64,000 nucleotides of DNA, taken from positions 21,702,001 through 21,766,000 of the forward strand of contig OZ076409.1 of NCBI GenBank assembly GCA_964187785.1, written 5' to 3'. Under the pieces are notes generated by a model. It was not told the DNA's origin. It saw only the letters and a program-made list of their open reading frames with translations, and did no database searches. The DNA comes from Amphiscolops sp. MND2022 (Eukaryota). The position numbers and the translations under genes were made by a program. Numbering within the stretch: position 1 is the stretch's first letter; each line of letters begins with the position of its first letter. Below are positions 24,454 to 62,797 of this stretch, piece after piece.

Positions 24454-25250
24454 AAAACCCAAATATCTAAGTTTCTGAAATGCATAACTTAAATCAAGGT
24501 TTGCCTACTGGCTCGTATGAAACAGGAAATATCAGGATATTTAGATATCGATTGAAAATCGCAACTGCAAAGGCTCAGCCAGTATCAAAAGTTAGAAAAA
24601 TAATGCAGTGTTTTCGATAGTCATGATTATCGTAGCGCTTCAATTTAAGCATTTGTGGACCAATAACACCAGATATTGATCACATTGGATCTTTAGTCTA
24701 TCTATTTCTTTTGGAGTTTCAAACATTCATTAGTGAGTCATACAACCTACACTTGCTTAAACCTAAACTTGGGTTAGCGTAGTAGCTGTGGCTTCTAAAT
24801 AACTAACGTTAACTAAATAACTAAAAGTGCTGCTGATGGAAAATCTAACAAGCAAATTGCTGCATGTTTCCCATGAAGCAACATGGAAACATCTGCATTA
24901 GCCACGAGTTCACCCCTTTGGGGTGTCATCGATATGTTGAAACGTAGTCAACCAAATACGGCACTAACTTTTCACAATCGGATGTTGATTTTGGCGACAA
25001 ACCATTCAGAAAGAGTTTGAACGTTACCAGTCTATTTTTTTTACAATCGGTTTCCGGTCATTTTCAGTCTTTCAAAGTAAAATTTTCATTTAGTCCAAAA
25101 AATTTGCCCGAAATCACTTGATATTCACTATTTTGCAAAGACTCCCTTATAGCGGCGAAAGCCTTTTGGGAGTCTTTTCAGTGCGAAGCAAGTTGAAAAC
25201 TTACGATTGTCTGTTTCATTTATCGTGTCACCCACCGATAAAATAGATTA

Positions 25251-26561: not shown

Positions 26562-29500
26562 CTACTACTACTACTAAAAGACTGAATTGATACTAGTCAA
26601 CACAAAAGAACAACTTGATGATAACATGTACAGATTTTTTTTTAACAACAGCTACATTTCAGGAACATTTTACAGCCACTATCTTCATATTTAGTTTTGT
26701 AGTGATTCCAGTAAATTCTCTTTAGATCGGATTCAAATGCGGCAGGGTGGTTTGGCAGTTTGATGTTGTATTCTTGTTGTACAAAATTGCTAAGTTTGAT
26801 GATTCGATTGAAGAAAAATTCCCGTGTACACTTTAAACGTGTGTAGTCAGACATGAAAATATTTTTGGTGTTACTTCTGAGCTCATAATTATTGTTGTGT
26901 TGATTTGAACACACATAATCCCATATGGTGAAGTCATAAAGGCCCATTGTGAGCTTGTTGAACAGTAGCAGATCCTGCATTTGAAGATGTAAAGAAATCG
27001 GTAAATGGTGATATTTGTCAAGAAGTTGATGAAATGAGCTCCTATAGTCAATCCACTTGAAACAGATCCGCTGCAGCCTTTGTATTTTTTTAAGTCTCCT
27101 CTGTTCGGATGCCAAACACCTGAAGCATAAGCAAGTGCGGGTAAAATGTAGATGCGGTACAATTTAAATTTCATGTCAGGGTTAAGCATTTTAGGAAGGT
27201 TCCGACGTAACATGGCTAGGCGTTTATAATTTGCTATTTTAATATTTATGTGATCGGTCCATGTCAAATTTGGAGAGACCCAGACACCAAGAACACGAAT
27301 ACTCTTTGTTGTAGGATAGATATCATTTTCTCCCATGTGTAGGACAAGGTTATCACATTGCATCTTTGATTTACTGAAGTGTAATAATTTCGTCTTCTGC
27401 AAGTTAAAGTCGAGTTTGTTTTCTTCACTCCACTTCATTAGTGATAACAAATCGTTCTGAAGCTCGAACAGAGATGAACTTGCCAGTTTAAGGTCGTCAG
27501 CGAATAGAAATGGAACACACTCACAATTCTCGGGCAGGTCATTTATAAACGCAATGAAGAAAAGCGGGCCGACCACTGAGCCTTGGGGCACACCACTTGT
27601 AATAGGACACTCTTCTGATTGACAGTTTTCAATTTTAACTTGTTGCATTCGGTTTTGCAAATATGAAGCTATTAGTTTGAGTAGAGATCCACCCAGACCC
27701 AGAGATCGTAGTTTTTTCAGTAGTATAGAATGAGGGACTCGATCAAATGCTTTAGAATAATCCAAATAGATTGCAAAGGCTTTTTCTTTGGAATCGATCC
27801 ACTCAAAGATTTTATCAAAGAACGACAGTAACTGGATGATACATGATCGGGATTTTCGAAAACCAAATTGATGGGAGGATAGTTTGTCCTGTAGATGCTT
27901 GGAAATGCTCCTGAAAAGAATTCTTTCAAATACGAGTGAAAGTTTGCTCAAAGAAGCAATTGGACGGTAGTTGGCTATCTCATTTTTCAATCCCTCTTTG
28001 AATATGGGTGTGATAATGGTTTTTTCCAGGATGTAGGATACACTTCAGTTTCTACGATAACCTTTGATAGGTTGTAGAAATGTATTGAGAGACTGTTTGA
28101 ACACTTTCGTAAAATTTGACCATGAATACCATCAGGGCCAATGCCATCAGTTGATAAATCTAGAGCCTCTTTTGCGATTTCGGTAGATAGTTCTACATCA
28201 TTCAGTACATTATCAGTAAAATCGGTGAATGTATCGTCAGAAGCATTGAATACTGATCCAAAATACTGATTGAAGGCGTTTGCAATTTTGGAACTTCCAG
28301 TAATTTTTTTCTTTTTGGGATCAATCATTGTCTTCGGAATGTCGGAAATTTTGAGTTTTCTAATCAGTTTGTAACAATCATTTACATCACCATTTACGGC
28401 ACAAAACTTGTCGAGGAATACATTTGTGTCCAACTCAATAGAATTTTCAAGTTCTTTACAGATAGTAATGTATTTCATATAATTTTTCAAGTTGAGGCCA
28501 TTTAGTTGCTTTAATTCTGTTTGGAGGCAGTTGAAGAGATGAATACTGTGAGAGCTCAAGTAATCCGGCAACATTTTTCGCTTTTGCCGTTTGCTAACTA
28601 AGAACTGTTTGAGAATGTTTTGAAATGAAATCAGCCAGTCCGCAATGAAGTCGACAGAATTTTGGTCTAGTTCGAACGAGAATAGTGACTGAGCTAGTGT
28701 TAGGTCAATCGAATTTATGTCGGTTGCTGCGAGACTGTATTGTTTGAGGTCAGTTTGTGTGTACATTGTTTCAGAGTTTTTAGGGATACCCACAGATATG
28801 CTGAAATGGATGTTTTTCAATATCAAGAACTTCAGGCTCGTCATAGTTTGAAAATACCAGGTCAAGGACATTACCATCTTTGTGGGTTGGTTCCTTTACA
28901 AGCTGGGTGAAATTTTTAGCAGTAAGGAATTTTTCGGTTTCACAGAAATATTCTGTACTGATCGCTGGGAACTGTGCCCAATCCTCGTTTGGTAAGTTGA
29001 AATCGCCCATAATTAATACTTTATCAATGGAAGCGTTACTGAGAACATTATAGGCCGAGGATAAGCAATTTGAGATTACATCATCAGGAACACGATACTC
29101 ACTAGGGTTTGGAGGATTGTATAAAACAATAATTCCATAGGTATCAATTGATATACCACAACAAAATGTATTGTCCAAGCATTCTATTTTTGATGCAACC
29201 AGTTCTTTTTTTGCCATAATAGCCACACCTCCATGCTGATTTGTTTCACGCACGGCTTTTGCTATGACTGAGTAGGCAGCTGTGAGAAAAGTATTGTCTG
29301 AAGAAGATTCATCCCACCAGGTTTCAGTAAGGCAGAGAATATCAGGTAATCTTGATTGGAGAATACACGATAAGTGAAGTCTTTTTTCTAGGGATAAGAT
29401 ACTGCGGCAGTTTAAAAGAAAGATGCGGTGGACATTTTCGTAATTTTCTAGTCAGTTCACCTCTACCAGTTCGTTGTCTTTGTAGAGTCTCAATTTTTTT

Positions 29501-30560
29501 TATTTTCAAACGGCTACGATCTATGCCACTCCTGATCAATTCGTAACGTTTGGCTAACAGTTGTCTTTCCAGTAAAAGGTCCTTTGGGGACAGTTCAGGG
29601 GTGATCAAAACCCTTTTGTTTAGGTAATATTTTTTCTCGATGGCCTTTGCGATGACTTTGCGAGCATCCCATACAGATCCAAATGTTACAAGTAGGTTCC
29701 GAGTTCTATTTTTATCAAATTTCCCGAGTCGTTGAGTTTCAATAACATTTCCGGAGCAATTTAAATCATCAAGAACCTTTTCGACTTCGGACTTATCATG
29801 CAGTTGTCTATCTATGAAAAACTTGGAATCCATTTCCTCAATTCCGGATATTCTGATTTTGTAATGATAATTATTGTCCTCAGTTATGGTCGTTTCAGGT
29901 ACATGCCGATCTCGTGTTTTAGGTTCTTTCGTAGATATAGGAATTTTGTTCGGCAACTTTTCTTCAATGACGTTTTCGACGATTGTTTTGATATCTTTTT
30001 TAAGTTCATCTAGTTTAGCATTTTCAGTTGAGTCATCAAAGGCTGATTTTTTGCTAACACACGAATCACAAAAATAGAAATTTTCAGACGAGGATAAGTA
30101 AACGAATACTTCCTTTGGTATTTTCAGACACTGAGAGTGAAGCCAGTGAGAACATTTTTCACATTGAATCCAGTCCCTCGTTTGTTGCGATCCATGACAT
30201 ACAGAACAGAGTCCATGATCCACAGCACATGTTCCACCCAGTTGAGTTGTCCCATCACTGTTGGAAGAGGAGACCAGTGCACTTCTTGTGAGAACCATCA
30301 TCAAGTTTTCATATAACCGGAAACTATTTAATAAGTTTATCACAACAATTAGGCTTATGGTTCAATACTCAATCGGAAGGACCTAAAACTTTTTATGTGT
30401 GAAAAAAATTAGGTTCGACAGAAATGCCAATAAGGGCTAAGGGCTGATTGACAAAACGGGTTTTGATTTTAAACTGTTGTTTTTAGAGGTCAAATCAAAA
30501 TCACGAGTTGAACCAACGGTTAAAAATCTACAGTTTCGATTTTCCGTTTACAAACATACA
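26562..30560 (-). mobile_element. Near full-length CR1-group LINE: ORF1 with PHD finger (~30301-29450), ORF2 APE endonuclease + RT (~29430-26642) broken by frameshifts
   Basis: PHD CSVC...WIQCEKCSHWLHSQC...YFCDSC; APE motifs LCLTETW, GGVAI, MGDFNLP, VLDLVF; RT motifs NYRPIA, YLDYSKAFD, GVPQGSVVGP, FADD; (TAG)n 3' tail at ~26562-26576. The 5' end is approximate. Confidence 0.9.
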
Positions 30561-31206: not shown

Positions 31207-32616
31207 TCAAAACTTGCCTTTGACCAACTCCTTATAGAGCTCTATCTGATTATCCATGTTCTTTACCTGCAGCTTGTTCAACGCAGCTATCACTCTATAG
31301 GACTCGGCCATTCTGCGCTGCTCCTCAGTGAGTGCATCCAACACACGCTGCCAGTCCTCTTGTTTGCCTTCACACTCCAACCAGCGGACATGGATCCAAT
31401 AGTAAAACTGAAGGGTTTTCTCCTTCTCTGATAGTTCACGTTTGATTTCCATTTCAACTCTGAATTTTATTAAACCATGCTCGTCTGCTAATGAGCCCAG
31501 GATTTTTTTGTCTCCAAAGTTTTGCAAAGTAATCATGTAGCCATCATAGCTCTGATCTCTGGGCGTCAGATAGAAGGGTTCCGTTTCTCTCTTGAAAAAT
31601 TCCTCGCAGTCCTTTAGTATGGAAACAGTGAAGACAATGTATCGGTCTAGGAGTTCAGGTCGTGTAGTGTCCGACTCGTCTGTTGAATTTTGATAAAGAA
31701 TTTTGTAGGTCTTTATTTGGATAGCAAGCTGGAAAATTGAAAGGCGAGCATTGATACAAAAATAGGTGCGGAGATTTCAAAACAACCTGGGCTCCTACCG
31801 TTCAGATTTACGACACCCCAAAGGCAGACGCGTCCAGGTGCAAGAAAAACGACAAGACTGTAGAAAGAGCACAAAATTGGCCCTTACGAGGCTCAATGAG
31901 ATTTCCGCGACTGCAAAAACTTGAAACAAATTTCAAAAAACTTGATCAATTGCAAATTATTTCCTCGATGAAATCTCATTTTATAAAAACGCCCACAACT
32001 CTCAATTCCAGATTTATAAAGAAGTCCCAATACTTTCAAATTTCCCAAAGAAATAAGACCCAAATTGCAAACATAAGAAATTCAACTGAAAGCATCCGAA
32101 TCTTGAGAGTATAACCTTTGTTACTCGAACAAGAGACAAAAGCTCTGCCTTCGATTGAACTTTTAAAGGCAGTCTAAGCTCTCATCGAACGCTTAATTAG
32201 ATAATTATTAAGCTATTATCATTGCGGGGTACTTTCGATGTAGAAACGACTAAACCTAGTGCAATAGTGGGTTTTATTTCACAATAATGACACGGCAAAA
32301 TAGCATTCATGAAATGACTTACATCGACGAAGGAAGGGTTATTTTTGTCGATGCCATTGGGAAATATGATAGCGGACCATATAACATCGGACATATTGAA
32401 CTCAGGGCTGGCAGACATGTTGTCCGTATACAACAACTCGAGAAAAATAGGAAAAACAGCAATGTATGAATCTCTGATAGTCCCGTCAGGTACGGTTATC
32501 TCAAGGAGTTTGAAGATCTTCAACGCATCTTTTTCTTTTACTTCTTTTTCTTTGGTTTCCCCTTTTTCCACTTTTCCATTTTCCGCTTCTCGCTCGATTT
32601 CTTCACATGTCAGAAC
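31207..32616 (-). CDS. MATH-domain protein with C-terminal coiled-coil, no BTB; exons 32616-32323 and 31728-31207; start possibly an ATG-only exon at 32989-32987
   Basis: GT-AG phase-0 intron joins SPEFNMSDVIWSAIIFPNG...SFVD|LAIQIK...FTVSILK...LIKFRVEMEI (MATH-like) followed by a helical tail. The start exon is an inference (AAAATG|GTCAGT). Confidence 0.7.
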
Positions 32617-33996
32617 CTGGTAGGCATAGTGAAAATATCAGCAACCAAAAAACATTAGCTACAATCTCTCTTGAATACTTTTTCTTATTGAAACCTTTAT
32701 TGAACTACATTCGTTTCTGATGAAACTTTTGCTTCTGCAACCTTGTTTGACAAATGAATAGCCAAAGATTTGGGGTACACCATCAAATGTTCCGTGAGCA
32801 TTTTACCGATTTATTTCAGTCGTCGGATTTGGATCTATACTTCAGTGCGTAAGTTTTGAGTTAGTTTTCACAACGACCCGACTGTGGTGGATGGATGGAT
32901 TAATAGAGCCCGATTTCAAAGCAGCTGAGTTTGATACTAACAAGACGGACGAGAAAAAAATAAGACAAGAAAAAACTTCAACTGACCATTTTCAACGCTC
33001 TAGCTTATGCAAACATATATTAACTTATACATAAAGCTGTACTCTACCTCCCATTTTTCATCCTTTGCTGTTGACTGATCACGCTCGTCGTGAACAGTTG
33101 ATTTCCTAGTCGCGTGCACTTCCTTTTGGGCACAATCGAAGTTGGCAACTGATAAATAAGACAACGAATCCATTGAGCAGATAGCGATACGTCTATTTCT
33201 TCACTAACAAATCAGCGGTGATTGACTACTCGTCAATTGTTCAGATAAAAAATCAACACAAGTAAAACCAACACAAATCTGAAAGAAATTTTAAAAATAA
33301 TAGGGCTTTTGGAGCAGAAATTAGCGAACACTTCTCGGTGAACTGACACAAATCAGAAAACGCTTAGTCACTAACGGTTAGGATACCTTAAAATGAGTTT
33401 TCAGGGTCTGCCTGCTGACAATTCGATGTAAAAATAATGCTGTTTGCTCGAACCAAAAAAGCCAGACATCTACATTGATAAACATTTAGGACAAATAAAA
33501 ATTGGCGTCGATTATTGAAAAAGGGTTGATACGGTATGGAAATTTTAACGCAAGCGGTAACTTTTGATCGGAACTTCAAGAGCGGTCAAACTTTAGGACT
33601 TTGAACATGAGGATATTATATTTAATGAAATACACATCAAAATCAAATTCAAAGCTTTTGATTTTTGTTTAATTTTTCTTTTGGTACAGCATTTATCTCA
33701 TAAGATTTCCAGATCTTACTTTCAAGTTTTACTCACTAAGACACTTACTAAGCAAGCAAAGAGCAGATGTGATATGTATCATCACAAATTCGTCACTGTT
33801 GACCGGAAAAATGCTTTGGCTTTTCCAAATCGATGTATCGTGAAAAATAATGAAATATAGAACTTTTTATTCTATCAATTCCTTTACAGAGCACCATTTG
33901 AAAACTGCTGGTTATAAACAAACATAAAAAGGGTGGATTGATATGTAAATAAAGAAAACACTGAGACTCAAAGCTAATCTACTGAATATGAATGTT

Positions 33997-35253: not shown

Positions 35254-38200
35254 CTAAAGAGGTGCCACAAACGCCATAGCAGCCTTACTCTTACGAGCCA
35301 GCAATGCGGACCAAACAGGAATAAGAGATAAACTGACGGTGGAGATGCTGATCACTAACAGGTAGATCTCCTTCGAGAGCAGATCATACAGTCGGGCTCT
35401 GCTACCCACAATAAGAGACAACTCGCCCACGTTGCATGAACAAATGGTGGCAACAACTTTCTGTGAGATCGGGTATTTCGTCATGAATTTGCTAAATACT
35501 AAGAGTAGGAAACAGAATTTGACTGTCAGCACAACAGCTGTTAGAGAGATGACCACGCCCAGTTCGTAGTACACGAAGGTGGGGAACAGATGAAAGCCAA
35601 TGGTGGCGTAGAATAAAGAGGTAAACACGTACTTTAGCACGGAAAGATTGTCTTGGCTCAAGTGAAAGCTACCAAAGTGATGCAGCACGGCTCCTGAAAC
35701 ACGGGGCAGTTAAAATTCCAGTGAAAATTCAAAAGCAACTCTCAGGGGCTACAAAAAACGTCACATTTCCAAAAAACAAAGCTGATATTCAATCAAAAAA
35801 TTCCAGACTGTGGTGTATTGGTGGTGAATGGTCAGAGCTTAAAAGCCAAAGATAACCTTTCTGAAGTAGATGTGAAAATTTCGTCGAATTGGAAAAGATG
35901 AATGTAGTGTGAATTTGACTCACCCAAAAAAATACAAGCCAAATCAGTGGAGACTTCCAAGAATTCAGCCAAAAGCACGACAAGAAACAGAATGAAGATG
36001 AGAATGGCTGATTGGTTGTTGGTCAACAACTGCTTGACTGAAAATCGGGAAAACACTTTTTCTGCAGCATTGAAAGAAGTCACGAGTAAACGTACTGCTC
36101 CGTAGATAAGTAGACAAAGAAGCACAGTTTTGAGAAGAATGACTCCCAAGTAGACATCCAAATTACGCTCCTTCAGATATGGCAAAATAGCAAGAGCAAA
36201 TCCCAGGTAAACGTCTTGGCCGGCGAGATACATCTTGAAGTGTTCATCTTGTGGAGAGGACCCGTTGCTGGACAGCTTCGGAGTGAAATGATTGGTCGAA
36301 AGAGCAAAACAGAATGACACCAGGCCCATTTGCAGCACAGATTTCCCTGCAATGGAACAGCGCTAGTTCAGTTTCACAACTACAATTAAATATTTTCGAA
36401 AACCATCAGGAATATCCATCATTATCAATATACAAACAATCGACGACTTTCAAAAAATCCAGACAAGCTCAATAGAAGCGTATCTTTTACATTCAGATAG
36501 ACATGCGTTTTTGAAGAAGTTTTGAAAAGCCTATCTTTGAAATAGATTCACTTAAAATTTAGGGAAGGTATTTAGGGAAAGTTTCGAATTACATGTATCC
36601 GGGACCGCAGTAGCTAGTCGACTCTGATAACACACGGAGCCACAAACTACTACTAATGGGGGAAGGCATCTTGATGATCAATAAAAGTTGAGATACATTG
36701 TCCTAATTTATAAATTACCCTCCACTTGCCGATGTTTTTCGAATTTGTTTTGTGGGACCGTTATTGACACTGTAAGGAGGCTCTGCAGCTTGCAGCGTAC
36801 TGACACCCAAACTCTTTTCGCTGACATGCTCTTCATGTACTAAGGGCAAAAATCCCATCTCTCCACACCAAATCCCGGTTTCAGTACGCGCGGTCCTTAC
36901 TAATGAGGGAAGTAGAAACGTTTTTTTAGCAGTTTGTCAGACAAGACGCCCGCTGACCACTTCTGGGGGACGTTTTGATAAGATTTTTTTTCAAAAAGTT
37001 AAATCATGAATAAGTAGACACGTTACGAACCTAACTTTTTTTCAATTTAATTTTGTATAAGAAATTCAATATTCCGAGTTTAAAATTAGAACAGGGGAAA
37101 ATTTGGTAGAAGAAAAAGCGACGATCATTAATTTTCTTTTCCTATATGAACTATTTGCGGAAGATGAAACTATGGAAAACCTTCTTTCCACCAAAAACAT
37201 TCGCATAATGAAGACGATCAACTAACCTATGACAGATGAGAGTAACCCAAAAGAACAGAAGATAAGTAGGAAGACCATTGGAAAAGCCAAGAAGATAATT
37301 TGCCAATAATTCATGACACGATTCATTTCAAACTCCAGTCCCACATCGAGCACCGCGAAGAACACTCCAATTTCACCCAATGTCTCAATCTGAATCAAGT
37401 CAGTTATGATGTTCACTCCCGACGGGCCAGCAATCACTCCTGAAAAACGGACAAAATTTGTACAAAGAACACAGAAAATTGGGGAATTCCGAAGAGAACA
37501 TACTTATGGGTCACGTGCTTGCTACTAGATGACCCATAAAAACGAAACGCGCGAAAATCCGAAATGTTTTTCAAAAAAATACACTAGTCCACAAAAGTAA
37601 ACACTAACGACTTTAGTAGTTTTATGCCAAAAAACATTTGAAAAACTTTCCAAAATCGAAGTCTTCTTTAAGCCTCGAGCTCAATCGGTCTTCTTGTGTT
37701 GCAATTACCACTAGGTGTCCCAAAGAAAGCACAAAAAAGTTCTATAGAGCCCTGAAACATTTGTCAGCAAATAAATCAACAATTTCGAAATTCACATTTC
37801 AGCCTATCGATCATTTGGAATGACAATTCTTGTTCGAAAATAACCCTTCATATTCAAAAGCCCATGAATAGACACGTACTTTTGACTCAGAAGATATTTA
37901 GAAAATCCCGAGAAGCTTTCGAAATCATTCAAGAGAAAGTGGTTACGTAAAAACAGTTCAAGTTGAATGATTGACAGTAAAATTTATTAAACAGATTGAG
38001 TTGTTTGTTGACAAGCAATGTATATTTGGAGATTGATAAATTTTTGCGGTTTTCTTTTTTGAGACACATAGTACTAGGTAACCCATGAAATGTACACGTT
38101 AAAAAAATCTATAACAAATTGGTGAAGTACTAGGTGAACCAAAAAAACGGAACGCACAAAACTTAATCGTAATGTTTGTAAACAAGAAACTTAAATTCTT

Positions 38201-41200
38201 TCAGTTTTTTAATGTCAATCATTTCGAGTGAAGTTTTGTAGCGTAATCACATCTTCAACTAATGGTGCCTCGAACCACCGGAAATGATCTAGAAGTCTTG
38301 ACCAGTCACTTTTCATTTCATTATCACGTTCAATGTGTCAAAGTTCTTTCACCGGTAAGAAAACATGCTATTCTGAATGATTGACAACAGCGTTAAAAAA
38401 GTTGCTTCAAAACAATTGTTGACAATTATTTGAAACATTGAGAGCTCGAAAATTTCTTTTTTGGTTCACCTAGTTTTCGACTTTTCAAAGTTCAACAAAG
38501 GGCCTTGTTTCGACTTTTCACATCACTACAGATATCAGAAGTCAATATACACGAATTGTATTACATGTCAGTCATGTGACAGACCAAAACACATTCAGGC
38601 TCCAAAGGTTTATTAGTTGTGAAATTGAACTAGGTTCGTACGAAATGCCACAATGACTGATTGACAAACCTGATCTTGAATGTCTTTTGAAGTTGTTGTT
38701 TTTGGAGCTAAATGAAATTTAGGGTAACCCAACAGATGAACAATCTACCGTTTCGACATTCTTATCTAAATAAAAGCACACACTCCCCTTACATGTCTTC
38801 GGACTAGGGTTACTTGCTTATTTATACGCGTAAACATTCATCAGCAACGAGTCAAAACCTGAAAATTCATTTTGCCGCTGGTTTGTCATTAAGAACAACA
38901 CATCAGTTCGAAGAAAACTTTTCGTTACGAGGTTTGCTAACATTTATTTTGCTAACACGCAGTCTAGTTCTCTGATTTTTGAAGACTGGCAACCCGAGAC
39001 TGCAATTTTCGAGAAAAATCTTACATGTACTGTTTCACGTGGTTCACCATGGCATGTCGAGTTTGAGCTGTCGAACTTCAATTAATCAAAATAACTGTTT
39101 CCATGAGACGGGAAAATTTTCTCTGCAAACAAGCGAGATCAAAATTTGAGGATCAACCGGCCTGTATGGTTGACAAGCGTAAATGGATTCCACTGCAGTT
39201 CAGAAAAATGTTGATTGCAAAATAATCCGGAAATTTGGAATTCAAAAAAACCTGGTAGAAAGGAATTTTTGGGTTGAGCGAAGAACCTTCTATGAAATAA
39301 GAGCGTGATGACAAAATCCATGATAGTATCAAGGTTCCTACCTCAATTTTCGAGATTTCACGGTACGAATCGTACCGTACGATCGTATCATATCTTAGGG
39401 TCAAAGATAACAGGTTACGTCTCATCTACGCGTACTGATGATTTTGCAAAACAGCAAACGTAGAGAAAATTTGACTAAAAAGCCAAGTGTAAGAATAAAA
39501 GCATAAAATTAGGAAACGCTATAAATGCTGCAGCAATGAATAGCACCAGGATGGTTCGCATTGTAATTTCTTCGATACATAATACTCCGGTTACGTAATC
39601 ATTATCAATAGTGAGCGGAACAGAAACTGGAATAGTTGCAAAATCGATCAATTTCACAGTCCTCCAACTGCGTGAAAGTCCAATTGCACAGTAGCCTATA
39701 GGCATACAGCACGCGTCCCCCCCCCCAATAAACACCATATTGTAACATAGAGGCGAAACCGTGCTTCGCAAACACTTGCTAAGAAAGTTGCGAGCTTTAG
39801 AAGAGAAAACCAAAAAAGCAATTGTCCGACTCCTTAACCCTTGGTTCTCCCTATGATATTTTCCTTTTAATTGATAAGTTTAAAGAAACCGGAAACGGCC
39901 GAAGTCGGCGCCCCGCCCAAGGTTCAAAAGAGTAAGTTTAGTAAATATGCAAGGGCCACTTTTGTCAAAAGTTTATTAAATTAACAGTGCCGAAAAATAT
40001 CAGAAGGGATACGCAAAAGCCTCGAACACAAATTTTCCCTAACATCAAAAAGCAAAATTTTTTTCTTCGGGCAAGTGTCTCATAGTGCCGAAAAAGAAGC
40101 TTTACACTCACCAAACGCTATTTTAAGGTCGAATTTATCAAAGTGAAGGGGATACCCTTTGACCAAGTGAAAATTGTATTGAAAAAAAGTCAGTGTCGAA
40201 AAAAATCATACCTTTCTCACAATCATTGAGGAAACTCATCAGTTCCACAAAATTTTGAAAAAAAATGAAAAAAGACTCACTGCGCCGAAAAACAAAAAGA
40301 GGGGACCCTTTGGGTTTTTCATCATCCAGTTGGGCGCAAAAAAAATCAAAATAAACAGAGGTTATTTTGGCGACATTAAAAAACGGGAAAAAATGTGGCG
40401 ATATGAAAAAAAATTTCGGGAAGACAAAAGCTAATATAGACTGCTTGGAAGCAGCACGGCTTGTAAAAAATTAACGCACACCCCCCCCCCCCTGTTCGAA
40501 CACTAAACCTCTGGGTTGAAAAGCAAACATCTTACCACTAAACCATGAACGCCCGAACTGTGAGACTTGCCGGCTGAAACGAGTTGTTGCGCGGAAAAAA
40601 GCACCCACACTTTCCCATAACACTTGCTTATCGCAAGTGTAACCAGTTTAGCTGAGTTGAACCAAGCGATGGTTGTTGGTCCACGATTCATGGAGTGAAA
40701 CGCAACTAACTAGTGGCTTTTTATCAATGCACACGAACTGACCAAAATAGTTCTTACAAGTGCTACGAAATTTTATGGTGTCAAATTGAACCATTTGGTC
40801 TAGCGAACTGAACCAAAAAGGTTTTTCCGTTTTTTTTTCGCGTAACATACAATAGCGGGCGAGACTAAAGGGTCCCTCCAGTTTTTCTTCGGCATTGTGG
40901 GACTTTTTTTCGAAAATATTTTAATGACTTCGAAGGGTCACCGCTTCAATTTTGTTGGTTTTGCGACAGAATTGTTGACACAGAGGCGAAGCGGTGCTTC
41001 GCAACACATGACGAAGACATTATTTTAATATGCGTATATATATTATTTTAATCGCATGCGTATATATTCAACAGTTCAACTTTGTTCAATAACGTCCCTA
41101 TGGCACAGTGGTCAACGCTTATGCCGTGCAATCGGGAGGCTGCAGGTTCGAATCTCTCTGGGGTTTTGGCTTTTGTCTAAAAGGCGCTCATTATGAAGTT

Positions 41201-44200
41201 GGCTATTGTGGAAAAAAACTTACTTAGCTGGACTGCAATGCACATTGACTTCGTCATGTGCAAAAAATCCCAGAAGCTCCCCCCTTTTAGCGCGCCAATT
41301 AGGTCAACTTTTGGGTTTTTCGGGTACTGTAAAAGAGAATACTTGACACTTTGAAGTCCTTTTGCTATTTTTGAGCCCTAGATATGGCGCCGACTTATGC
41401 CGTTCCCGGCTTTTTATTCAACCTCTAATCTGATTAATCAAAACATTTTACCAGCAGTGATGAAACCGAGAACTGGAGGCAATTTGATCAGAGAGGCCAA
41501 CGAGGAGAGAAGAAAAGAGAGGACGATGATGATGAGGATGTCTACGATGAGCCTCCGGTCCTCGAACGACATGGTGGCATCTTCTGGCTTGGACAACACA
41601 TACTTATTGTTTCTAGTGTCCACCAGAATTTCTGCTGGTCGCTGCTTCCCGTCTAGCCTTTCTTCATTGCGCACCTGATAGCAAAGATGAAAGCTAAACT
41701 CGAAGTCTCATGGAGCAGCTTATATGCACAAGGCTGAACTATGATCGGCGTACTTTGTTTACAGCTGTAACATCAGATTGGCCCTTGTTTATAGCCAAAA
41801 ATAACCTATCCCGATGCATTACAGATGTTGAAGAAAACTAGTTACTCAGAAGTTTTTAGAGATCAATGAATGAAGTGGCTTGTGTACTACATTACAGAAC
41901 TTGACCTTTAACCGTAAACGACCCGGGCGTTTTTGCAATTTTTCAAAAAATTTGATTAAAAAAATTAAATCATGAATATCTCCACAACTACGGGTACCAG
42001 AGAAACGAACTATAACGCGTTTGAAAGGTCTGGTATTGGGCTTTCATTTTGGTCAGGTGAGCCCCTGTCGCCGCGCTCCCCCTCCTTCAGAATTTCAGGC
42101 TCTTTTTCCGGTACCGCCGCTAAGCGGCAGTTCCGCACTTCGTGCGGCCCGCTGCGCGGGGGCTTGTAGTAACAACAGAATATTATTGGGATTTGTTAGG
42201 TAAGTACTTGATGTGCAAGTATATGGGGTTGGTTTTTGCTATGGGACAAGATTTTTTGAGGAAACTGGATTTCGCCAAAAAGTGAAAGTTAGAAAAAATC
42301 ACAATTTTTCGTGCAAAAAAAACTCATTTTTCTCAGTTTTGAAGATATATTCACTTTTCCTAATGCTTGTGCCATTCAAACCAATCTAGGTACCAAGAAA
42401 TTGTTGGAAAAAAACTGTGCTAGAGAATATGGGCTACTGGCAAAACGGATTAGAAATTGAAAAAATAGGTATGTGACTTTAAAGTACCGGTGGGTCGTTT
42501 AGGGTTAACAAAGCTTTCAGATAATCAGATAAGAATGAAAAAACATATTGTATTTTTTCCTATGAACTCTCGATTATAAAAGATTTGACTAATTATGACT
42601 AAATGAGAGAGAGAGAGAGAAAACACTGTATTATTGTATAGGGATAGCTGGTGCCAGTATACAATAAGTGTAGATTGATTTATGCTGAAGCATAAATGAT
42701 TTTTTCAAGTTTTACAGGGCGATAAATCAGGTGAAGCGGAAATCACGCCAAGTATGAGATGTATGGATAGGCATACGACTACTTTCCAAAGTTAGATGCC
42801 TTCTGAGACGACTTTTGAATGTGTGTAGACTTATACTAGTGTCTCTTAAGTACAACGGTAGTGAGTTCCACTTTGAAGAAGAATGATGAAAGAAAGAAAA
42901 AAGAGATACATGACTTCCCACGTAAATTATCTGATTAGTGCGATCGTTCCACCTGAAAATCGCCGTAGGTAACTTTAAAGAGCTCTGGAAGGCTTTTTTA
43001 GTATTTTTGAGATATTGGAACAGAAATACAAGAGATTTCAAATCGATAAGTTGCTTTATTCCAATTATTTTCTTTTTTTCTCTCAGATCACTCGACGATT
43101 TAGAGCTCGAACGGAAGGAGACAGATTTTAATGCCCAGTTCATCTGTTTCTCAAGGGAAAGTAGCAAAGGAGGGGATATTTGAGTGAAAAAAATCGCAGA
43201 GTATTCGAAATGACTGATTATTAGCGCGTGGAAAAGCATGACTAAGACTGTGGTCGGAAATTTGTGTTGTATAGATTCAATAGTTTTTATTCCAACTGCC
43301 ATGTTTTTCAGAACCTTTTTTACTTGGGTTTGGAAAGTCAAGTGTTGATCTAACGTTATTCCAAGATATTTACATTCACATTTCTTTTTGACAACTGAGG
43401 AGCACACGACAACTGTTTCGGAGTCTAGCTGTCTCTTGTCTTTTTTTCGGGAAAAAGTTATGAATTCTGTTTTACTACCATTCAAATTTAGTCGATGGGA
43501 CTTAAAGTAACTTTCAAGTTTCAAAATATTTGTTTGCAAACATTGCAAAGCAATGTCAGGGTCCTGGTGACTACAAAAAAGCAAGCAATCATCGGCGTAC
43601 TGGATAATGCGAGCATCCTCCGTTATCTGTCCAGTCAGGTCATTGACATATAGGTTAAAGAGCAGTGGTCCTAAAATAGTGCCCTGGGGAACGCCTTGTT
43701 TCAGTTCTATCCAATCCGATTTGACACCGTTCAATGATACCTGCTGCAGTCTATCACTGAGGAAACTTTTTATAAAGTTGATGGCCGAAAATGAGAAACC
43801 AAGAGACTTGAGTTTAGACAAAAGGATTTCATGTGAAAGTGAGTCAAAGGCTTTTGATAAATCCAGCAAGACTGCATGAACTATCTTTCCATCCTGAATT
43901 TCCTCTCTCTCTCTCTCTCTCAGCATTGTTGCATAATCTATTCTCAATATCCATTCCAATATCTATTTTTTGGAAATAATTATCATAAAAATTAACAATT
44001 TTCTGTTTTTTTTGTGATGACCTAAAATTTTTTGAGCATGTTTCGATTGTTGTTGAAACTTTCAGCGGGATTGGAGTAAGACTGGGTGTACGTATAAGAG
44101 GGCTCTTCGCTGTAGTTTTCCATGGGATTAATTGGTTGACTGAAATCAACCAGGTGTTCTTTCTGTCGACCCGCATCTTGGTCCAGCCCCACGTAAGTTT

Positions 44201-45193
44201 CAGGTACTTCTCGGTAGTTGTTGCCATGTTCAAAGTTGCTGCCGTATTCTGGTACCCCTGCAAGGATATTGAGAATAGATTATGCAACAATGCTGAGAGA
44301 GAGAGAGAAAATGTCTTGGTTTTAAGGGTTAGTTAGGGGTTTTTAGTGAAAAACAAAGTAATCAAGTCATAAAACTTGTTCTGTGTCATCAAGCGATTGC
44401 ATACATTGTAACTTTACTGTGGTTTCAATCTTGAATGCTTATTGCGACTATCAGTAAAGTGAACAATTGAAGCATTCACCTGATAAACAGCTTCTATTTC
44501 TCCAATTGCCTCCTCTTTTTGCACTCCATTGACCCAGGCATCACCATGCAAGATTGAATTCTGTTCGATGCCTATATCGGAAGCGACTGATCGCAACTCT
44601 GACAACATTTCGGCGAACATTTTCTTCATCACTGATTTGGTTTTGTTTGCATTTTCGGCCCCTCTGGAGGCTTCTTCATTCGCCCAAAAATCTTCTTCCA
44701 GTTTGGAAACCTCTCGAAGTTCTACCTCTTCTCTGCGTATTGCATGCTGCAGTGCTTTAATGCGGCCAACACTTTCCTCCTTAAGCTGTTCAATGTCATT
44801 GATATCGCCTTTCAAAACAGTCATGAATGAGTTCAACGCTGAATAAATGAATTGCTCCGTCTGGTTTATTTCTCGCATCACCAACGAATACAATCTTATT
44901 TTCAAGTCGATGCTCCAACGTTCATCTTTGCTTTCCATTTTTTCCTTCGCAGTGAGGTCTGCTACCAATTTATTCAACTGCTTCGAAATTCGATCACGTC
45001 TGTTTAAAAGGTCGTTGACATTTGGACACCCTTTCGAGAACCATTTTATTTTTGAGGGAGGCTTGTCTATGAGTTTTTCACGCTTGAAAGTTTTGCGACT
45101 CTGCACTGACTGACATTGCACGATTAGGAGGAATAAGACAATTGCACAAAATACAGCGACACCTCTTGAAGGACACATAGAGTTGTGAATCAT
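35254..45193 (-). CDS. TMCO3: Transmembrane and coiled-coil domain protein 3 (CPA2/Kef-like cation/H+ antiporter), ~670 aa; exons 45193-44480, 41674-41452, 37439-37227, 36346-35924, 35693-35254
   Basis: Signal peptide + long coiled coil, then LVDTRNNKYVLSKP, GPSGVNII...QIETLGEIGVFF...VGLEF, QDVYLG, FYATIGFHLFPTFV, NVGELSLIVGSRA. All junctions are GT-AG with phases 0,1,1,1; total 2013 nt. Confidence 0.9.
38129..38474. mobile_element. MITE with 18-bp perfect IR
   Basis: ACTAGGTGAACCAAAAAA (38129-38146) / TTTTTTGGTTCACCTAGT (38457-38474). Confidence 0.55.
39745..40640 (-). mobile_element. Helentron-type element, family D (end related to family B), with tRNA-like segment at 40494-40553 and a nested family-A-like fragment (39885-~40420)
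   Basis: ACATAGAGGCGAAACCGTGCTTCGC hairpin end like family B; IR ACACTTGC / GCAAGTGT with terminal palindrome ACACTTGC-TTATC-GCAAGTGT; minus-strand A box TGGTTTAGTGG and B box GTTCGAAC. Confidence 0.6.
40673..41413 (+). mobile_element. Family A Helentron-type element containing a family B insertion
   Basis: Reverse-complement homolog of 22209-22910; ends GGCGCCGACTTATGCCGTTCCCGGC. Confidence 0.75.
40978..41261 (-). mobile_element. Family B Helentron-type element (second copy) with tRNA-like A/B boxes
   Basis: Near-identical to 2218-2505; perfect 12-bp IR CACATGACGAAG / CTTCGTCATGTG. Confidence 0.8.
41912..42504. mobile_element. piggyBac-like non-autonomous element
   Basis: TTAA on both sides (41908-41911, 42505-42508); IR CCGTAAACGACCC / GGGTCGTTTAGGG. 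Confidence 0.7.
42606..43902 (-). mobile_element. 5'-truncated CR1/L2-group LINE with uninterrupted RT C-terminal ORF, (CT)n tail
   Basis: LDLSKAFDSL, GVPQGTILGPLLF, QYADD, KYLGITLD; no stops to 42727, suggesting a young insertion. Confidence 0.9.
43908..44308. repeat. 45-bp perfect inverted repeat (43908-43952 / 44264-44308) enclosing an exon-like segment
   Basis: (CT)nCAGCATTGTTGCATAATCTATTCTCAATATCC and its exact reverse complement. Confidence 0.85.
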
Positions 45194-45292
45194 GAAACCT
45201 GAAATATCGACAGTTTCGATGATTCACACAGAACACTAGTTTGTATAGAAACAAAAGTCAGAGATACATCAACGTATTTGCTGCCCAAAAAA

Positions 45293-45298
45293 TTTATT
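45293..45298 (-). terminator. Candidate polyadenylation signal AATAAA of EIF2S1
   Basis: Canonical hexamer ~170 nt after the stop codon, followed by U-rich sequence. Confidence 0.6.
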
Positions 45299-45468
45299 GC
45301 TGCCCCCAATTCATTCAAGCAAGCAAAGAAAACAATATTTAGACTTATGCTATAAATTTCAAAAAGATAGTTATGTTATGATGAGATTGCAAATTGAAGA
45401 CGACAACGACCAGCACTTGAAGAATGGCTTGGAGTACAACGCAGAGCGGGAAGCATGGGCGGAGAAAG

Positions 45469-47362
45469 CTAGTCCTCTTCGTCCTCATCGGCATCTCCGT
45501 CATCGCCCTTGCCATTAGCCACTCTGTTCCCTCCGCCAGTGGTAGAGTCACTTTCGTCGCCACTTTGGTCGTCGTCACCGGCCACTTCTTGGTTCATTTG
45601 TTCCAGTCTCTCCAACTGCTTCGCAAACTCCACGTCATCTGATTTGTTGACCACTTTGGGCTAAAATACGTCGATTTATTTTCATCGCAACCTAAATTGA
45701 TATTAGCCAAAATATGACGCTAATGCTACTGACTGAAGCGGAAGACGTTTGTGGATATGCAAATTCAGGTTTGATAAATTTACAGGAATGCTTTGGGATG
45801 AAATATCTAAATAGAACTGTGGGAAAAATACATGTGAAACTGGACAAGTGTTGAAGCCGAAAGCATTTCTCAACCCATTGAATAGGCAAATGTGTTATTC
45901 TCAATACCTCCATAACAACTTTGAAAAATCCCCCAGCATCTGTGATGCTTTCTTCGATCTCTCCGATAGCTTTGTTCACAGCCGCTAGTCCGTCGGTATG
46001 ATCTAAAGTTGTGACTGTTACAACGTATTGAGGGGGCGCTATTAAATTCACCTGAAACGTTCACTTGCAAGTATATCATTCATTAATCTTTCACAAACCC
46101 AAAGTATTGCAAATCATTGAAACTTACAGATATTTGCATGTCTTCAGTGGAACAAGCAATTCCTTTTTTAAGCGACCTTTTGATAGCATCTATTCCTTCA
46201 AAGTTGAAACAGGAAACTTCGATATCTGAAACGATAGATGTTCAACAAGCACAAAGAGTGACTCGGGGAATTCGATTTAAAAATTGTGATTTCAAACCGG
46301 CTCTAATTTTAACTGGATTGGGAGCGAGTCTCCTTTGAATCTCTTCAGCTAGCATTTCTCTGACATGATTTTCTAACGGGCATTCATCCAAAACAGACGG
46401 ATCAGCAACTGCCTTTTTGAACCATTCATAAGATGCGTTGTCTTGTTTGTATTTCTCGTCAAAATACCACGCAGAGTTCTGGTACAGGTCTTCCAAGTCA
46501 CTGTCTTCCTTATAATTTAATTTTTGGGCCACATTTCTGAGGATGAGGTTGATTTTATTGCCCTTAGCAAATTTGCTGTTGCAGAAATCTCTATCCTCTG
46601 GGCTCGCTCTTCTCTTAGAGCAGTCGATATATCCTAAAAGCAAAAGTCCAGATTAAAAATCGGCAACTGTTACCTTTGGAATAGATTTGAAGAAAATTTT
46701 CAACCTTTAACGGTATCAACTCTGACAACAACGACGGCTTCGTTCCTTCCCACTCGGATAAGTTTGGTGATAGATCTGATTCGTCTTCTCGAAAGTTCTC
46801 CCATCAGAATCATTCCTATAAAAATGCAACGTTCATGGTAAGAAACAGTATACACCAGAATGGGGGTATCAGGGTTATTAGGATACACAAATCTCAAACA
46901 GGTTCAATGAACCGAAATTGGCTTCTGACTGGAAAAGAGAACAATTGTGCTATCTAGATATTCAAATGAAAAACTCAATTTAGCAGCAAGTTTCTCTTTA
47001 TAATCCAATCTTCAAGAAGTGCAGTAAACGCGAGAAAAATTGAATCGTTTATTGAGAAGACGTTTCATTCTTAGAAATAAGTTTCGAACTTGACTGAAGA
47101 ACAAAGATACAAAGATTTTTTCGTTTCATACGACTGCGCAAAAATGGCTAGCTGAATACACTTTCAAATATACACATAATTATCAACTTCAAAATAAGGG
47201 ATCGATTCACAAACCTTCGATGTTATTGTATTCAAGAAGTCTCACATACGCTCCCATGTCTTCTATTACTTTGATTTGCACCATAACAAGTTCTTCAGCG
47301 GCAGGATACTTTGCCCGGTAGAAGCGACAGTTCAAATTAGCGGTACTCACAGTTCCAGCCAT
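45469..47362 (-). CDS. EIF2S1: Eukaryotic translation initiation factor 2 subunit alpha, ~342 aa; exons 47362-47215, 46815-46705, 46633-46298, 46225-46128, 46051-45908, 45660-45469
   Basis: CRFYRAKYP...[30 protein letters not shown]...KG|YID.SKRR...KIRA|DIEVSCF...NLIAPPQYV, acidic C-tail; all introns GT-AG and in phase. Confidence 0.96.
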
Positions 47363-47794
47363 TACTGAAAAAAATTACATGTATTACGGAAGTTTTCATT
47401 TATATGGAATATATGGTAACTTCGTCGAAGTTTCCAGGCAAAACTTGGATGAAAATACCCATATCAAGACACTTTCGAAAGTATCTGGGATCCAAAATGC
47501 TTCGAGGAGATTTATAAAGTTCCGTGTGAGAACTTGAAATCATCCATAGCATGTTTGCTCTCAAGACAGGCACAAGACTTGAAAGTAAAACTTGCCAGCA
47601 AAACAAAATGCCAGCAAAACTACAGAGAACATGCATCATCGAAATCAAATCGACTTTGAAATGCGACCAATCAGAAAGCTCGATGAACAATTTTTCTGGT
47701 TTTTCAGATTTCAGATGTTTGGAATTACGACACACGAGGAAGTTTCCCCAATAGCAGCCCGTGTCGATTAATCTGCTTTGCTGTTAATAAAAGA

Positions 47795-48878
47795 GCCTGA
47801 CTATTACAGTCACTCGATTTTAGTCGGCGCCTTTTCCCTTAAGGAAAAAGGCCTGACTCTTACAGTGAGTAGTTTTTAGTCGGCGCCTTTTCCCTTAAGG
47901 AAAAAAGCCCGACTCTTACAGTGAGTAGTTTTTTTTTTGTTTTTTTCAGTTGACAATCTCACTCTGAGTGGTCCACTTTTCTTACAATTCTTACAATTTT
48001 CAAAATCTTACAATTATTACTTAGCAAAATTAAAATACTGGCGCAAAAGTAGTTTTTATATCATCTAAGGGTCCCCAAAGGGTATTTTCGGCAGTGCGAC
48101 TTTTTTTCGAAAAAATTTTTATTGTTCCAAAAGGGTCCCCCCTTCGAGTTTTTTCATATTTTGCAACTGAATGTATGTTAATACATCACAAAGGGTCCCC
48201 CCTTTTACATTTTTCGGCACTATGCGACTTTTTTTGAAAGAAATTTTTTTTTCAAAAATTCATGTTTTTTTCCAAAAAAATTTTTTGCGCTTTTTGAGCC
48301 TTAGATATGGCGCCGACTTTGGACGTTCTCGTCTTGTTTATTATTCTTTTTTCATTTTTTTCAGTTGACAATCTCACTCTGAGTGGTCCACTTTTCTTAC
48401 AATTTTCATAAATTTTTGAAAATCTCTTGATAATGGCGCAAAAGTTTGCAACGTCTTTTTACATCATCTGAAAAACTCCACAGTACCTAAGGGTACTCCC
48501 TTTGAGTCTTTTTCGGCTCTGTGAGACTTTTTTTTCGAAAAATTTTTCCCCAAAGGGTCCCCCCTTCAATTTTTTGGAGTTTTCCGACAGAACGGATGTT
48601 GAAAAATCCCAAAGAGTCCCAAGGGTCCCCCTTTCAGTTTTTTCGACATTGTGAGACATTTTCAAAAAATTTTTTCACCAAAAGTGCCCCTCCAATTTTT
48701 TTAAATGATTTGCGACAGAATGGATGAAAAATGTCAAAGTTTCCCCTCTGGTGCGCCAATTCGGTTTAACTTTTGGGTTTTTCCGGGACCGTAGAAGAGA
48801 ATACTTCGACACTTTGAAGTCCTTTTGCTGTTTTTGACCCTTAGATATGGCGCCGACTTGGGCCGTTCCCGGCTTGTT
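47795..48878 (+). mobile_element. Head-to-tail family A Helentron-type elements (3' ends at 48338 and 48878) with duplicated 5' palindrome
   Basis: 5' TTTAGTCGGCGCCTTTTCC-CTTAA-GGAAAAAG unit twice (~47818, ~47875); repeated CAGTTGACAATCTCACTCTGAGTGGTCCAC block (~47947, ~48362); two GGCGCCGAC...CTTGTT termini. Confidence 0.75.
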
Positions 48879-60463: not shown

Positions 60464-62797
60464 AGGAAGCAATCGTCGGAAAAACAGCGGAAAAAAACCG
60501 TGAAATAACATTCTATAGGTAAGCATTTGGTTTAAATTGGGAATTCTAAATCCTTCGATGGTGAGAAGGCTCTTGTTGAATTTGGGGATTTTTTGGAAAT
60601 ACCTGACAAGCAAGAAATCAAATGACATCAGTCAATTCATGTGGCGAATGCAAGAATGAATGTAAAGATGCATGCCTATTATGAACACTTTGCGGCGCTT
60701 GGTAACAAGCAGGAAACTGTTTTGGAGTACCAAACATCATATTAACAACTATCAAAAACATCAGTGGATTGATTTGGCTGTGCGTGAGTTGTGAAGTGCA
60801 AGGTAAAAAGAACCTGAGATCTGAATGGAATCTGGATTCGGCTGTTGAATCGAAAGTTGACGAAATCAAAAGAAAGATAGCTGCTAGTTCTGACTCATTG
60901 ACGGAGATGTCAGATGCAATCAAATTAACAGAAGGAAATGAAACTAGATTCGATGCGATTCTGTTCTGAAAAAAAAACTGTTTGAGACCCTTGTCAAGCA
61001 GAAGGAAATCCCTGGAAATTGAAAGCATCTTGGTCGAAACAACCGAACACCAAACCTAACAATCTGAAACTGCTGATGAAAAAAACAGTGGAGCAACAGG
61101 AGAAAGAAAAACTTAAGAACGAGAAACGGTAAGCAAGTTCGGTCCAATTTAGAGTACCTGAAAGTAAGAAAATCATCTCGAAAGAATGACAGTAGCTTGC
61201 CTTGGTATTTTTAGCGAATATTGTTGTAATGGACTCAAATGTGGTGACATCTGTCAGAACTGCAACTATACTGGGAGAACCTGCAGAAAAAAGTAACGAC
61301 AGCGTGAAGCATAGAAACTTATACTAGAAGACAAGGTTACAAAGGCGAGCATCTTCAGTCTCTTGAAAAATATAGAGAAGCAGATTGTCGTTTCAGAAAC
61401 GTTAGTGTCTGCTGGCATGACTACTCGGAAGAATCTCGAGAGATAATGAAAGAAAGCATTAACGCAACGAAAGAGAAAAATAGTAAACATGGAAATGCAT
61501 GTTTGTTTCGTACGAGGACCGCCGTCCCACTTAGAGTTGCAACGGAAAAAAGCATTCAATACCATCGGAGACTGAAGGAGGGCAAGAACTGATTACGTAC
61601 TTCATTGAATGCGCTCCTGTACAAGAGTCGAGGAAGCAATCGTCGGAAAAACAGCGGAAAAAAACCGTGAAATAACATTCTATAGGTAAGCATTTGGTTT
61701 AAATTGGGAATTCTAAATCCTTCGATGGTGAGAAGGCTCTTGTTGAATTTGGGGATTTTTTGGAAATACCTGACAAGCAAGAAATCAAATGACATCAGTC
61801 AATTCATGTGGCGAATGCAAGAATGAATGTAAAGATGCATGCCTATTATGAACACTTTGCGGCGCTTGGTAACAAGCAGGAAACTGTTTTGGAGTACCAA
61901 ACATCATATTAACAACTATCAAAAACATCAGTGGATTGATTTGGCTGTGCGTGAGTTGTGAAGTGCAAGGTAAAAAGAACCTGAGATCTGAATGGAATCT
62001 GGATTCGGCTGTTGAATCGAAAGTTGACGAAATCAAAAGAAAGATAGCTGCTAGTTCTGACTCATTGACGGAGATGTCAGATGCAATCAAATTAACAGAA
62101 GGAAATGAAACTAGATTCGATGCGATTCTGTTCTGAAAAAAAAACTGTTTGAGACCCTTGTCAAGCAGAAGGAAATCCCTGGAAATTGAAAGCATCTTGG
62201 TCGAAACAACCGAACACCAAACCTAACAATCTGAAACTGCTGATGAAAAAAACAGTGGAGCAACAGGAGAAAGAAAAACTTAAGAACGAGAAACGGTAAG
62301 CAAGTTCGGTCCAATTTAGAGTACCTGAAAGTAAGAAAATCATCTCGAAAGAATGACAGTAGCTTGCCTTGGTATTTTTAGCGAATATTGTTGTAATGGA
62401 CTCAAATGTGGTGACATCTGTCAGAACTGCAACTATACTGGGAGAACCTGCAGAAAAAAGTAACGACAGCGTGAAGCATAGAAACTTATACTAGAAGACA
62501 AGGTTACAAAGGCGAGCATCTTCAGTCTCTTGAAAAATATAGAGAAGCAGATTGTCGTTTCAGAAACGTTAGTGTCTGCTGGCATGACTACTCGGAAGAA
62601 TCTCGAGAGATAATGAAAGAAAGCATTAACGCAACGAAAGAGAAAAATAGTAAACATGGAAATGCATGTTTGTTTCGTACGAGGACCGCCGTCCCACTTA
62701 GAGTTGCAACGGAAAAAAGCATTCAATACCATCGGAGACTGAAGGAGGGCAAGAACTGATTACGTACTTCATTGAATGCGCTCCTGTACAAGAGTCG
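60464..62797. repeat. Apparently perfect 1167-bp tandem duplication (60464-61630 / 61631-62797)
   Basis: All ORF-track peptides recur identically at +1167; junction GTCG|AGGAAGC. Confidence 0.92.

Follow-up and report, generated by a model that had tools for sequence, protein, structure and literature searches.

How does a gene obtain its 5' end when its start codon lies 275 nt behind the stop codon of its neighbor? The question is raised by two genes, eIF2-alpha (EIF2S1) and TMCO3, in a 64,000-nt stretch of the genome of the acoel Amphiscolops sp. MND2022 (contig OZ076409.1, positions 21,702,001 to 21,766,000). We refer to this whole stretch as the window and use its numbering throughout. 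We propose that the pair forms a two-gene operon resolved by spliced-leader (SL) trans-splicing, and give this reading a probability of roughly 0.65. That TMCO3 is itself SL trans-spliced is the firmer part of the proposal and appears highly probable.

A closely spaced gene pair

The coding region of eIF2-alpha (45469..47362, minus strand; 342 aa), likely the first gene of the unit, has six exons (47362-47215, 46815-46705, 46633-46298, 46225-46128, 46051-45908 and 45660-45469). That of TMCO3 (35254..45193, minus strand; 670 aa) has five (45193-44480, 41674-41452, 37439-37227, 36346-35924 and 35693-35254). All nine introns in the two models are bounded by GT and AG, and internal stops are absent. 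The eIF2-alpha stop codon TAG occupies 45471-45469 and the TMCO3 ATG 45193-45191, both on the minus strand, leaving a gap of 275 nt; the original prediction of two same-strand genes about 275 nt apart was accurate. The remaining intergenic gaps in the window measure at least 2080 nt.

The identities first proposed for both genes hold when judged by exon models and alignments. The eIF2-alpha model contains the Pfam EIF_2_alpha domain and is identical to Symsagittifera roscoffensis P0005 at 280 of 336 positions and to Convolutriloba macropyga P0004 at 270 of 336. For exon 3 these two acoels are the best named matches (84-85%), and other named animals reach at most 57%, a pattern that points to a convolutid acoel as the source of the window. 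A contig of the same gene from a close relative has only 231 nt outside its ORF, which agrees with a 3' UTR of ~190 nt. The TMCO3 model has matches to Na_H_Exchanger and to named TMCO3 proteins. Homologue searches returned 0 of 1836 candidates for its exon 1, three hagfish proteins for its last exon and 27 proteins with HMMER. The model aligns over its full length with hagfish TMCO3 from residue 6 (204 of 642 residues identical); because this alignment runs end to end, no upstream coding exon is missing and 45193 opens the first coding exon. An open stretch within TMCO3 intron 1 (44257-44025) was rejected as an exon, since the model aligns without it.

A third gene on the same strand (31207..33173, minus strand; three predicted exons, 313 aa) begins 2080 nt past the TMCO3 stop. 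Pfam and Atlas searches with this gene gave no match and no family. It is counted here as a same-strand neighbor and not as a member of the unit.

Splice acceptors ahead of the start codons

Is the short gap accompanied by a splice signal? The predicted trans-splice site of TMCO3, TATTTCAG (45199..45206, minus strand), would place the exon start at 45198. Its AG (45200-45199) is followed by GTTTC and then by the ATG, and the claim that an acceptor on the minus strand precedes the start codon by 5 nt was thereby confirmed. Splice matrices were built from 11 introns of the window, and 7195 AGs were scored for comparison. By these matrices (n = 11 introns) the TMCO3 acceptor outscores 99.2% (21-mer) or 98.8% (8-mer) of the AGs, and it is the best of the eight AGs in the gap.

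Could the closeness of the genes and the acceptor be incidental, with TMCO3 starting from a promoter in the gap and remaining unspliced before its ATG? The site was picked post hoc, which leaves some room for coincidence. However, the chance that an acceptor this good falls no more than 10 nt from a given point is only 0.4-0.7%, and its signature recurs ahead of TMCO3 in two other acoels and ahead of eIF2-alpha here. We consider such a coincidence very improbable indeed.

Upstream of eIF2-alpha, the predicted SL acceptor TTTTTTTCAG (47365..47374, minus strand) would end an outron 2 nt before the ATG. The start codon at 47362 directly follows TTTTTTTCAG and TA, just as first described. This acceptor falls in the top 0.8% of AGs by 8-mer but only in the top 17% by 21-mer. 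A further predicted trans-splice site, TTTCTTTCAG followed by ATTTGT (33279..33288, minus strand), lies 105 nt before the ATG of the third gene and ranks in the top 0.3% by 8-mer.

Reading TMCO3 exon 1 through at the genomic level in the two other acoels reveals an FR signature 5-8 codons ahead of MCPSRG, the conserved second Met of TMCO3, found at 45178 in the window. A close relative reads LSLSFFR upstream, and the S. roscoffensis cluster reads LFR. The pattern xFR is read at 5 of the 11 true acceptors in the window, and FR occurs in 5% of random 10-residue windows, a comparison that presupposes an AGR codon. Similarly, the eIF2-alpha model of C. macropyga has LFSV ahead of its Met, resembling FFSV in the window. 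On these alignments the acceptor signature before TMCO3 seems to be conserved in acoels. The conserved signature indicates a splice at TMCO3 and says nothing on whether that splice is in cis or in trans.

A spliced leader in the window and in acoel transcripts

Does this lineage use a spliced leader? In S. roscoffensis, SL trans-splicing affects 30.2% of the genes, and the leader has been published (PMC9911081; bioRxiv 2022.08.27.505549); a single leader is reported for acoels in the available parts of the literature (PMC9911081, PMC2481426). A 20-mer of the published leader has one exact match in the window, at 30343-30324, and even with three mismatches allowed a match arose in only 1 of 100 shuffles. 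The surrounding sequence constitutes a complete 32-nt spliced-leader exon (30324..30355, minus strand). Without its last letter, the published leader matches the window at 31 of 31 positions, so that the leader is the one used for trans-splicing in S. roscoffensis (PMC9911081, from the available portion). The published form ends one base later, while the leader here ends at AG.

A search for SL RNA genes, one of the checks suggested with the original prediction, found three in metagenome contigs (L030, L047 and L065). Their exons are identical to the window leader at 32 of 32 positions, and the two of them that were folded are far more stable than shuffles (z = -4.2 and -3.7). A longer leader, reaching further 5' in the window, was rejected, as identity with the SL RNA genes begins at 30355. 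These genes continue with GTAAGT or GCAAGT; the window diverges exactly at the donor point, where TTTCCG, not GTAAGT, leads into a LINE. The simplest reading of the leader and LINE sequence is that a LINE RNA, once trans-spliced, was copied back into the genome; as a copy of such an RNA, the element would imply that this lineage uses this leader. Rfam at gathering score gave no matches across the 64-kb window, and the leader had none among viral contigs.

Scanning metagenomes for the leader yielded at least 120 loci; the scan selected on the known leader and is blind to any second one. The matches listed comprise 102 transcript-like contigs with the leader at their end and 12 leader-headed elements in genomic sequence. 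Three further loci are SL RNA genes, two are chance matches and one is another transcript. The chance matches (L048 and L051) were set aside because, out of 12 upstream leader bases, they share only 4 and 6, and the other transcript (L003) was left out of the 102 because it carries additional upstream bases. The SL transcripts compared come from other acoels than the window species. Of ten proteins encoded by SL contigs, two share a 90% cluster with named convolutid acoels, six fall in clusters with no named member and two were absent from the cluster collection. Neither eIF2-alpha nor TMCO3 is present among the at least 120 leader loci listed.

Among the matches listed, the distance from the leader to the first ATG is at most 5 nt in 20 of the 102 transcripts and at most 10 nt in 59 (median 8.5 nt), and in 66 full contigs the longest ORF starts a median of 14.5 nt behind the leader. 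The distances in TMCO3, 5 nt from acceptor to ATG and 20 nt to the second Met, fit this distribution, as does the 2-nt distance in eIF2-alpha. The base after the leader, in the 102 transcripts among the matches listed, is A in 75, G in 16 and T in 11, and the second base is T in 69. A then T is the commonest exon start in this set, and the ATTTGT that opens the third gene's predicted exon agrees with it. The TMCO3 exon start GT is found in 10 of the 102 listed transcripts, and the eIF2-alpha start TA in none of them.

Signals within the intergenic gap

What else does the gap contain? Its only canonical hexamer, AATAAA (45293..45298, minus strand), is the predicted poly(A) signal of eIF2-alpha and lies 170 nt past the stop. 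By itself the hexamer is within chance (shuffling the gap 2000 times produced it in 317 cases, a chance of 16-18%), and it gains weight only because a GU/U-rich stretch lies 20-46 nt behind it. That stretch (45247..45273, minus strand), with a T count of 14 in 25 at 45268-45244, is a predicted downstream element of 3'-end formation. The position of the hexamer and the U-rich sequence behind it agree with the first description. The acoel transcript contigs lack tails, and 3 of 58 carry AATAAA among their final 45 nt, which makes them a poor guide to poly(A)-signal use in acoels. Cleavage typically takes place 10-30 nt after the hexamer, and on this assumption the predicted 3' end of eIF2-alpha would lie ~65-85 nt from the TMCO3 acceptor. 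The hexamer itself is 93 nt (from its end) or 98 nt (from its start) from the TMCO3 AG, which bears out the initial estimate of ~95 nt.

The GU/U-rich stretch also contains two weak donors, at 45273 (score 2.87) and 45267 (2.84), which raise the possibility that AG 45199 ends a cis intron in the TMCO3 5' UTR. The first exon and promoter would then overlap the eIF2-alpha 3' UTR, and no trans-splicing would take place. The resulting introns of 75 and 69 nt are of a size common in the window and match the eIF2-alpha introns of 71, 72 and 76 nt, and the original statement that the gap could hardly hold a promoter plus an upstream exon was to this extent too strong. Moreover, GTTGAT is similar to the real donor GTTGAA, and trans-splicing was not called for ~70% of the genes of S. 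roscoffensis (PMC9911081, from the available portion). Nevertheless, neither donor reaches the score of any of the 11 true ones (2.95-8.3, leave-one-out), and both are equalled by 22% of random GTs; they sit where the GU-rich 3'-end element is expected, and the first exon would hold the sole AATAAA of the gap. We regard a cis intron as quite improbable. A further donor, scoring 3.91, lies within the last eIF2-alpha exon.

Does TMCO3 instead have its own promoter? In this alternative the gene would be trans-spliced at 45198 after a short outron that starts in the 3' end of eIF2-alpha, or would be expressed by both routes as a hybrid operon. The first 75 nt past the eIF2-alpha stop are G+C-rich (16, 12 and 12 per 25 nt), and CCGCCC at 45462 and TTCCCGC at 45452, directly past the stop, are what we take to be promoter-type motifs. 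Single short motifs of this kind are, however, frequent by chance, and the CpG ratio is lower in the gap (0.82) than on average in the window (0.92). A promoter here would also have to share sequence with the 3' UTR and the 3'-end signals of eIF2-alpha, whose transcription is expected to be high. More favorable to an independent promoter is the observation that in other animals most SL trans-spliced genes are monocistronic, the operonic share being ~40% in Macrostomum lignano (PMC8629364) and 2% in Schistosoma mansoni (PMC5832876), in the available text of both reports. Furthermore, although both genes are located on one 84,699,996-nt sequence in S. roscoffensis, their accessions (XP_063713557 and XP_063714677) are 1120 apart, a distance that leans against conserved adjacency if the numbering follows position. 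Weighing these points, we judge an independent promoter unlikely.

In the two-gene operon that we favor, the polymerase would start upstream of eIF2-alpha, the eIF2-alpha 3' end would be cut ~10-30 nt past AATAAA (near 45283-45263), and the polymerase would continue beyond it. Trans-splicing of the SL RNA's 32-nt leader at the unpaired AG at 45200-45199, ~65-85 nt on, would then leave the TMCO3 RNA capped and with a 5' UTR of 37 nt. At 47364, eIF2-alpha would acquire this one leader too, with no special SL2, the arrangement known from flatworms, tunicates and chaetognaths. The polycistronic unit originally proposed gains from the existence of an acoel SL, from the leader in the window and from the acceptor-to-ATG distance; the operon as such we still infer.

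Comparison with known operons

The original prediction had likened the junction to the SL2-type operons of nematodes, whose spacers contain the Ur element UAYYUU. No minus-strand TAYYTT occurs between 45293 and 45199. The spacing does agree, with ~100 nt from the 3'-end signal to the acceptor in C. elegans (median ~100 bp; PMC7986045, from the available portion). In contrast, C. elegans employs a specialised SL2, and the available acoel reports describe one leader and no such counterpart. The likeness is one of spacing only.

The candidate is likely of the single-leader type, known from M. lignano, S. mansoni, Ciona, Oikopleura and chaetognaths (PMC8629364, PMC5832876, PMC7986045, PMC12460157, all from their available portions). 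Like the operons described there, the candidate combines conserved genes on one strand, the first of them a housekeeping gene, with a short spacer, a single general leader and, close to the ATG, an unpaired acceptor. Published distance cut-offs are 1 kb with a peak at ~100 bp in M. lignano (PMC8629364), 200 bp in S. mansoni (PMC5832876) and 250 bp in a chaetognath (PMC12460157), as given in the available text; the present genes share a strand and are separated by 275 nt, with ~65-85 nt between predicted ends, as a single-leader operon requires. These distance rules also demand leader reads, and in the accessible part of the S. mansoni report SL support extended to just 66 of the 139 close pairs (PMC5832876). 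The known single-leader operons, all from other phyla, rest on SL reads of the downstream gene and partly on RT-PCR, whereas the present pair is known from DNA alone.

Have operons been described in acoels before? Operons are known in several phyla, and acoels were entered as '?' in a 2008 table (PMC2481426, from the available portion). The words 'operon' and 'polycistronic' are absent from the available portion of the S. roscoffensis paper, although SL and poly(A) peaks were used there to separate genes (PMC9911081). Our literature search, with thin coverage of subscription journals, found no report of acoel operons.

Leader-headed LINEs

The LINE body behind the leader (26562..30323, minus strand) encodes a PHD-finger ORF1, an APE-type endonuclease and a reverse transcriptase, is frameshifted and ends in a (TAG)5 tail. 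Its leader copy is located ~15 kb from the eIF2-alpha/TMCO3 junction, and no target-site duplication of 4 nt or more was found at the element's junction. CRE, SLACS and NeSL elements are inserted in an SL RNA gene, with the intron resuming after the element, and carry a restriction-like endonuclease after the reverse transcriptase. Neither feature is seen in the window LINE: the sequence past its tail is unlike an SL RNA intron, and in place of a restriction-like endonuclease it has an N-terminal Exo_endo_phos domain together with the PHD ORF1.

At least nine further SL-headed LINE copies occur in other contigs (9 of the 12 genomic elements among the matches listed). Endonuclease and reverse transcriptase domains were found in L017 and L026 and a weak endonuclease match in L068; L027, L038, L058, L043, L089 and L099 are linked to these by tblastx. 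Three others (L084, L087 and L093) are leader-headed without a LINE link by domains or tblastx. Among the matches listed, YYTC follows the leader in 9 of 13 elements, the window copy included, and in 1 of 102 transcripts (p ~1e-9, the copies not being independent).

SL-tagged retrogenes reportedly exist in dinoflagellates. In S. mansoni, six SL exons are merged to transposable elements, the same kind of arrangement with a leader at the head of a retro-copied RNA, and the authors could not rule out chimeric assembly (PMC5832876, from the available portion). Unlike those cases, several divergent LINE families here carry the leader, mostly with YYTC. A literature search for leader-headed LINE families in acoels found no study. 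Why would so many families keep the leader? One speculative and rather doubtful answer is that acoels have genome-wide operons, and that promoter-less LINEs downstream of host genes are read through like an extra cistron and re-trans-spliced at the AG of their own leader copy, which would restore an exact capped 5' end. Re-trans-splicing at that AG would explain why many families retain both leader and YYTC. The window LINE lies on the same strand as eIF2-alpha, TMCO3 and the third gene, and behind all three.

Implications

Did animals inherit operons and leader trans-splicing from early ancestors, or evolve them repeatedly? The matter is open, and acoels are a key branch for early bilaterian evolution. 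The eIF2-alpha/TMCO3 junction is a real feature and, from its sequence, likely an acoel operon junction. The pair offers a concrete and cheap test case, and public S. roscoffensis data permit a genome-wide count. Closely spaced pairs of this sort get fused in gene annotation. Finally, leader-headed LINEs may serve as a DNA-only marker of trans-splicing for species that lack RNA data.

Boundaries of the spliced leader

Three SL RNA genes were found among the listed leader-matching loci of metagenome contigs, each about 100 nt long with a strong hairpin at its 3' end. The leader is followed by GTAAGT in L047 (1-101, minus strand) and L065 (530-632, plus strand) and by GCAAGT in L030 (1-240, minus strand). 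These genes show that the leader ends in AG. The leader published for Symsagittifera roscoffensis (PMC9911081) has one further A at its end, which is probably the base with which mRNAs most often begin: behind the leader, A comes first in 75 of the 102 SL-headed transcripts among the matches listed. At the other end, the base preceding the published start is A in all three genes and in the copy within the window. Transcript contigs L010, L021, L049 and L003 carry six additional 5' bases, which match the DNA upstream of the L065 gene; either the leader of that species is longer, or the extra bases reflect the route taken in assembly.

Leader-headed LINEs

The window copy is a LINE (30355-26562, minus strand) that starts with the complete 32-nt leader, the leader-LINE junction coinciding with the leader's donor point. 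Its PHD ORF1, APE endonuclease and RT are in frameshifted pieces, and its tail is (TAG)5. A 5'-truncated RT fragment within TMCO3 intron 1 (43962-42730, minus strand) has no leader. Among the matches listed, the same leader heads multiple divergent LINE families outside the window (L017, L026, L027, L038, L043, L058, L068, L089 and L099), and YYTC directly follows it in most leader-headed elements, unlike in host mRNAs. The leader also heads elements in contigs L084, L087 and L093 among these matches.

Genomic context of the probable eIF2-alpha/TMCO3 unit

MATH and BACK (SPOP-like) exons occupy approximately 24500-6100 (minus strand), where a single exon with its flanks recurs every ~3.1-3.9 kb (20885-21322, 17133-17405, 13985-14257 and 10252-10524, minus strand) and strong acceptors lie upstream at 24475, 24391 and 23860. 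A near-identical direct duplication (60621-61592 and 61788-62759; period 1167 nt) encodes identical ORF translations. About 420 nt upstream of eIF2-alpha, 2.6 copies of a 56-bp tandem repeat (47789-47933) adjoin ATTGG and ACTTCC motifs (47752-47671), together a possible promoter region of the unit. A third gene of no known family (33173-31207, minus strand) begins 2080 nt past TMCO3, with a strong acceptor at 33279 (minus strand), 105 nt ahead of its ATG, and may extend the unit.
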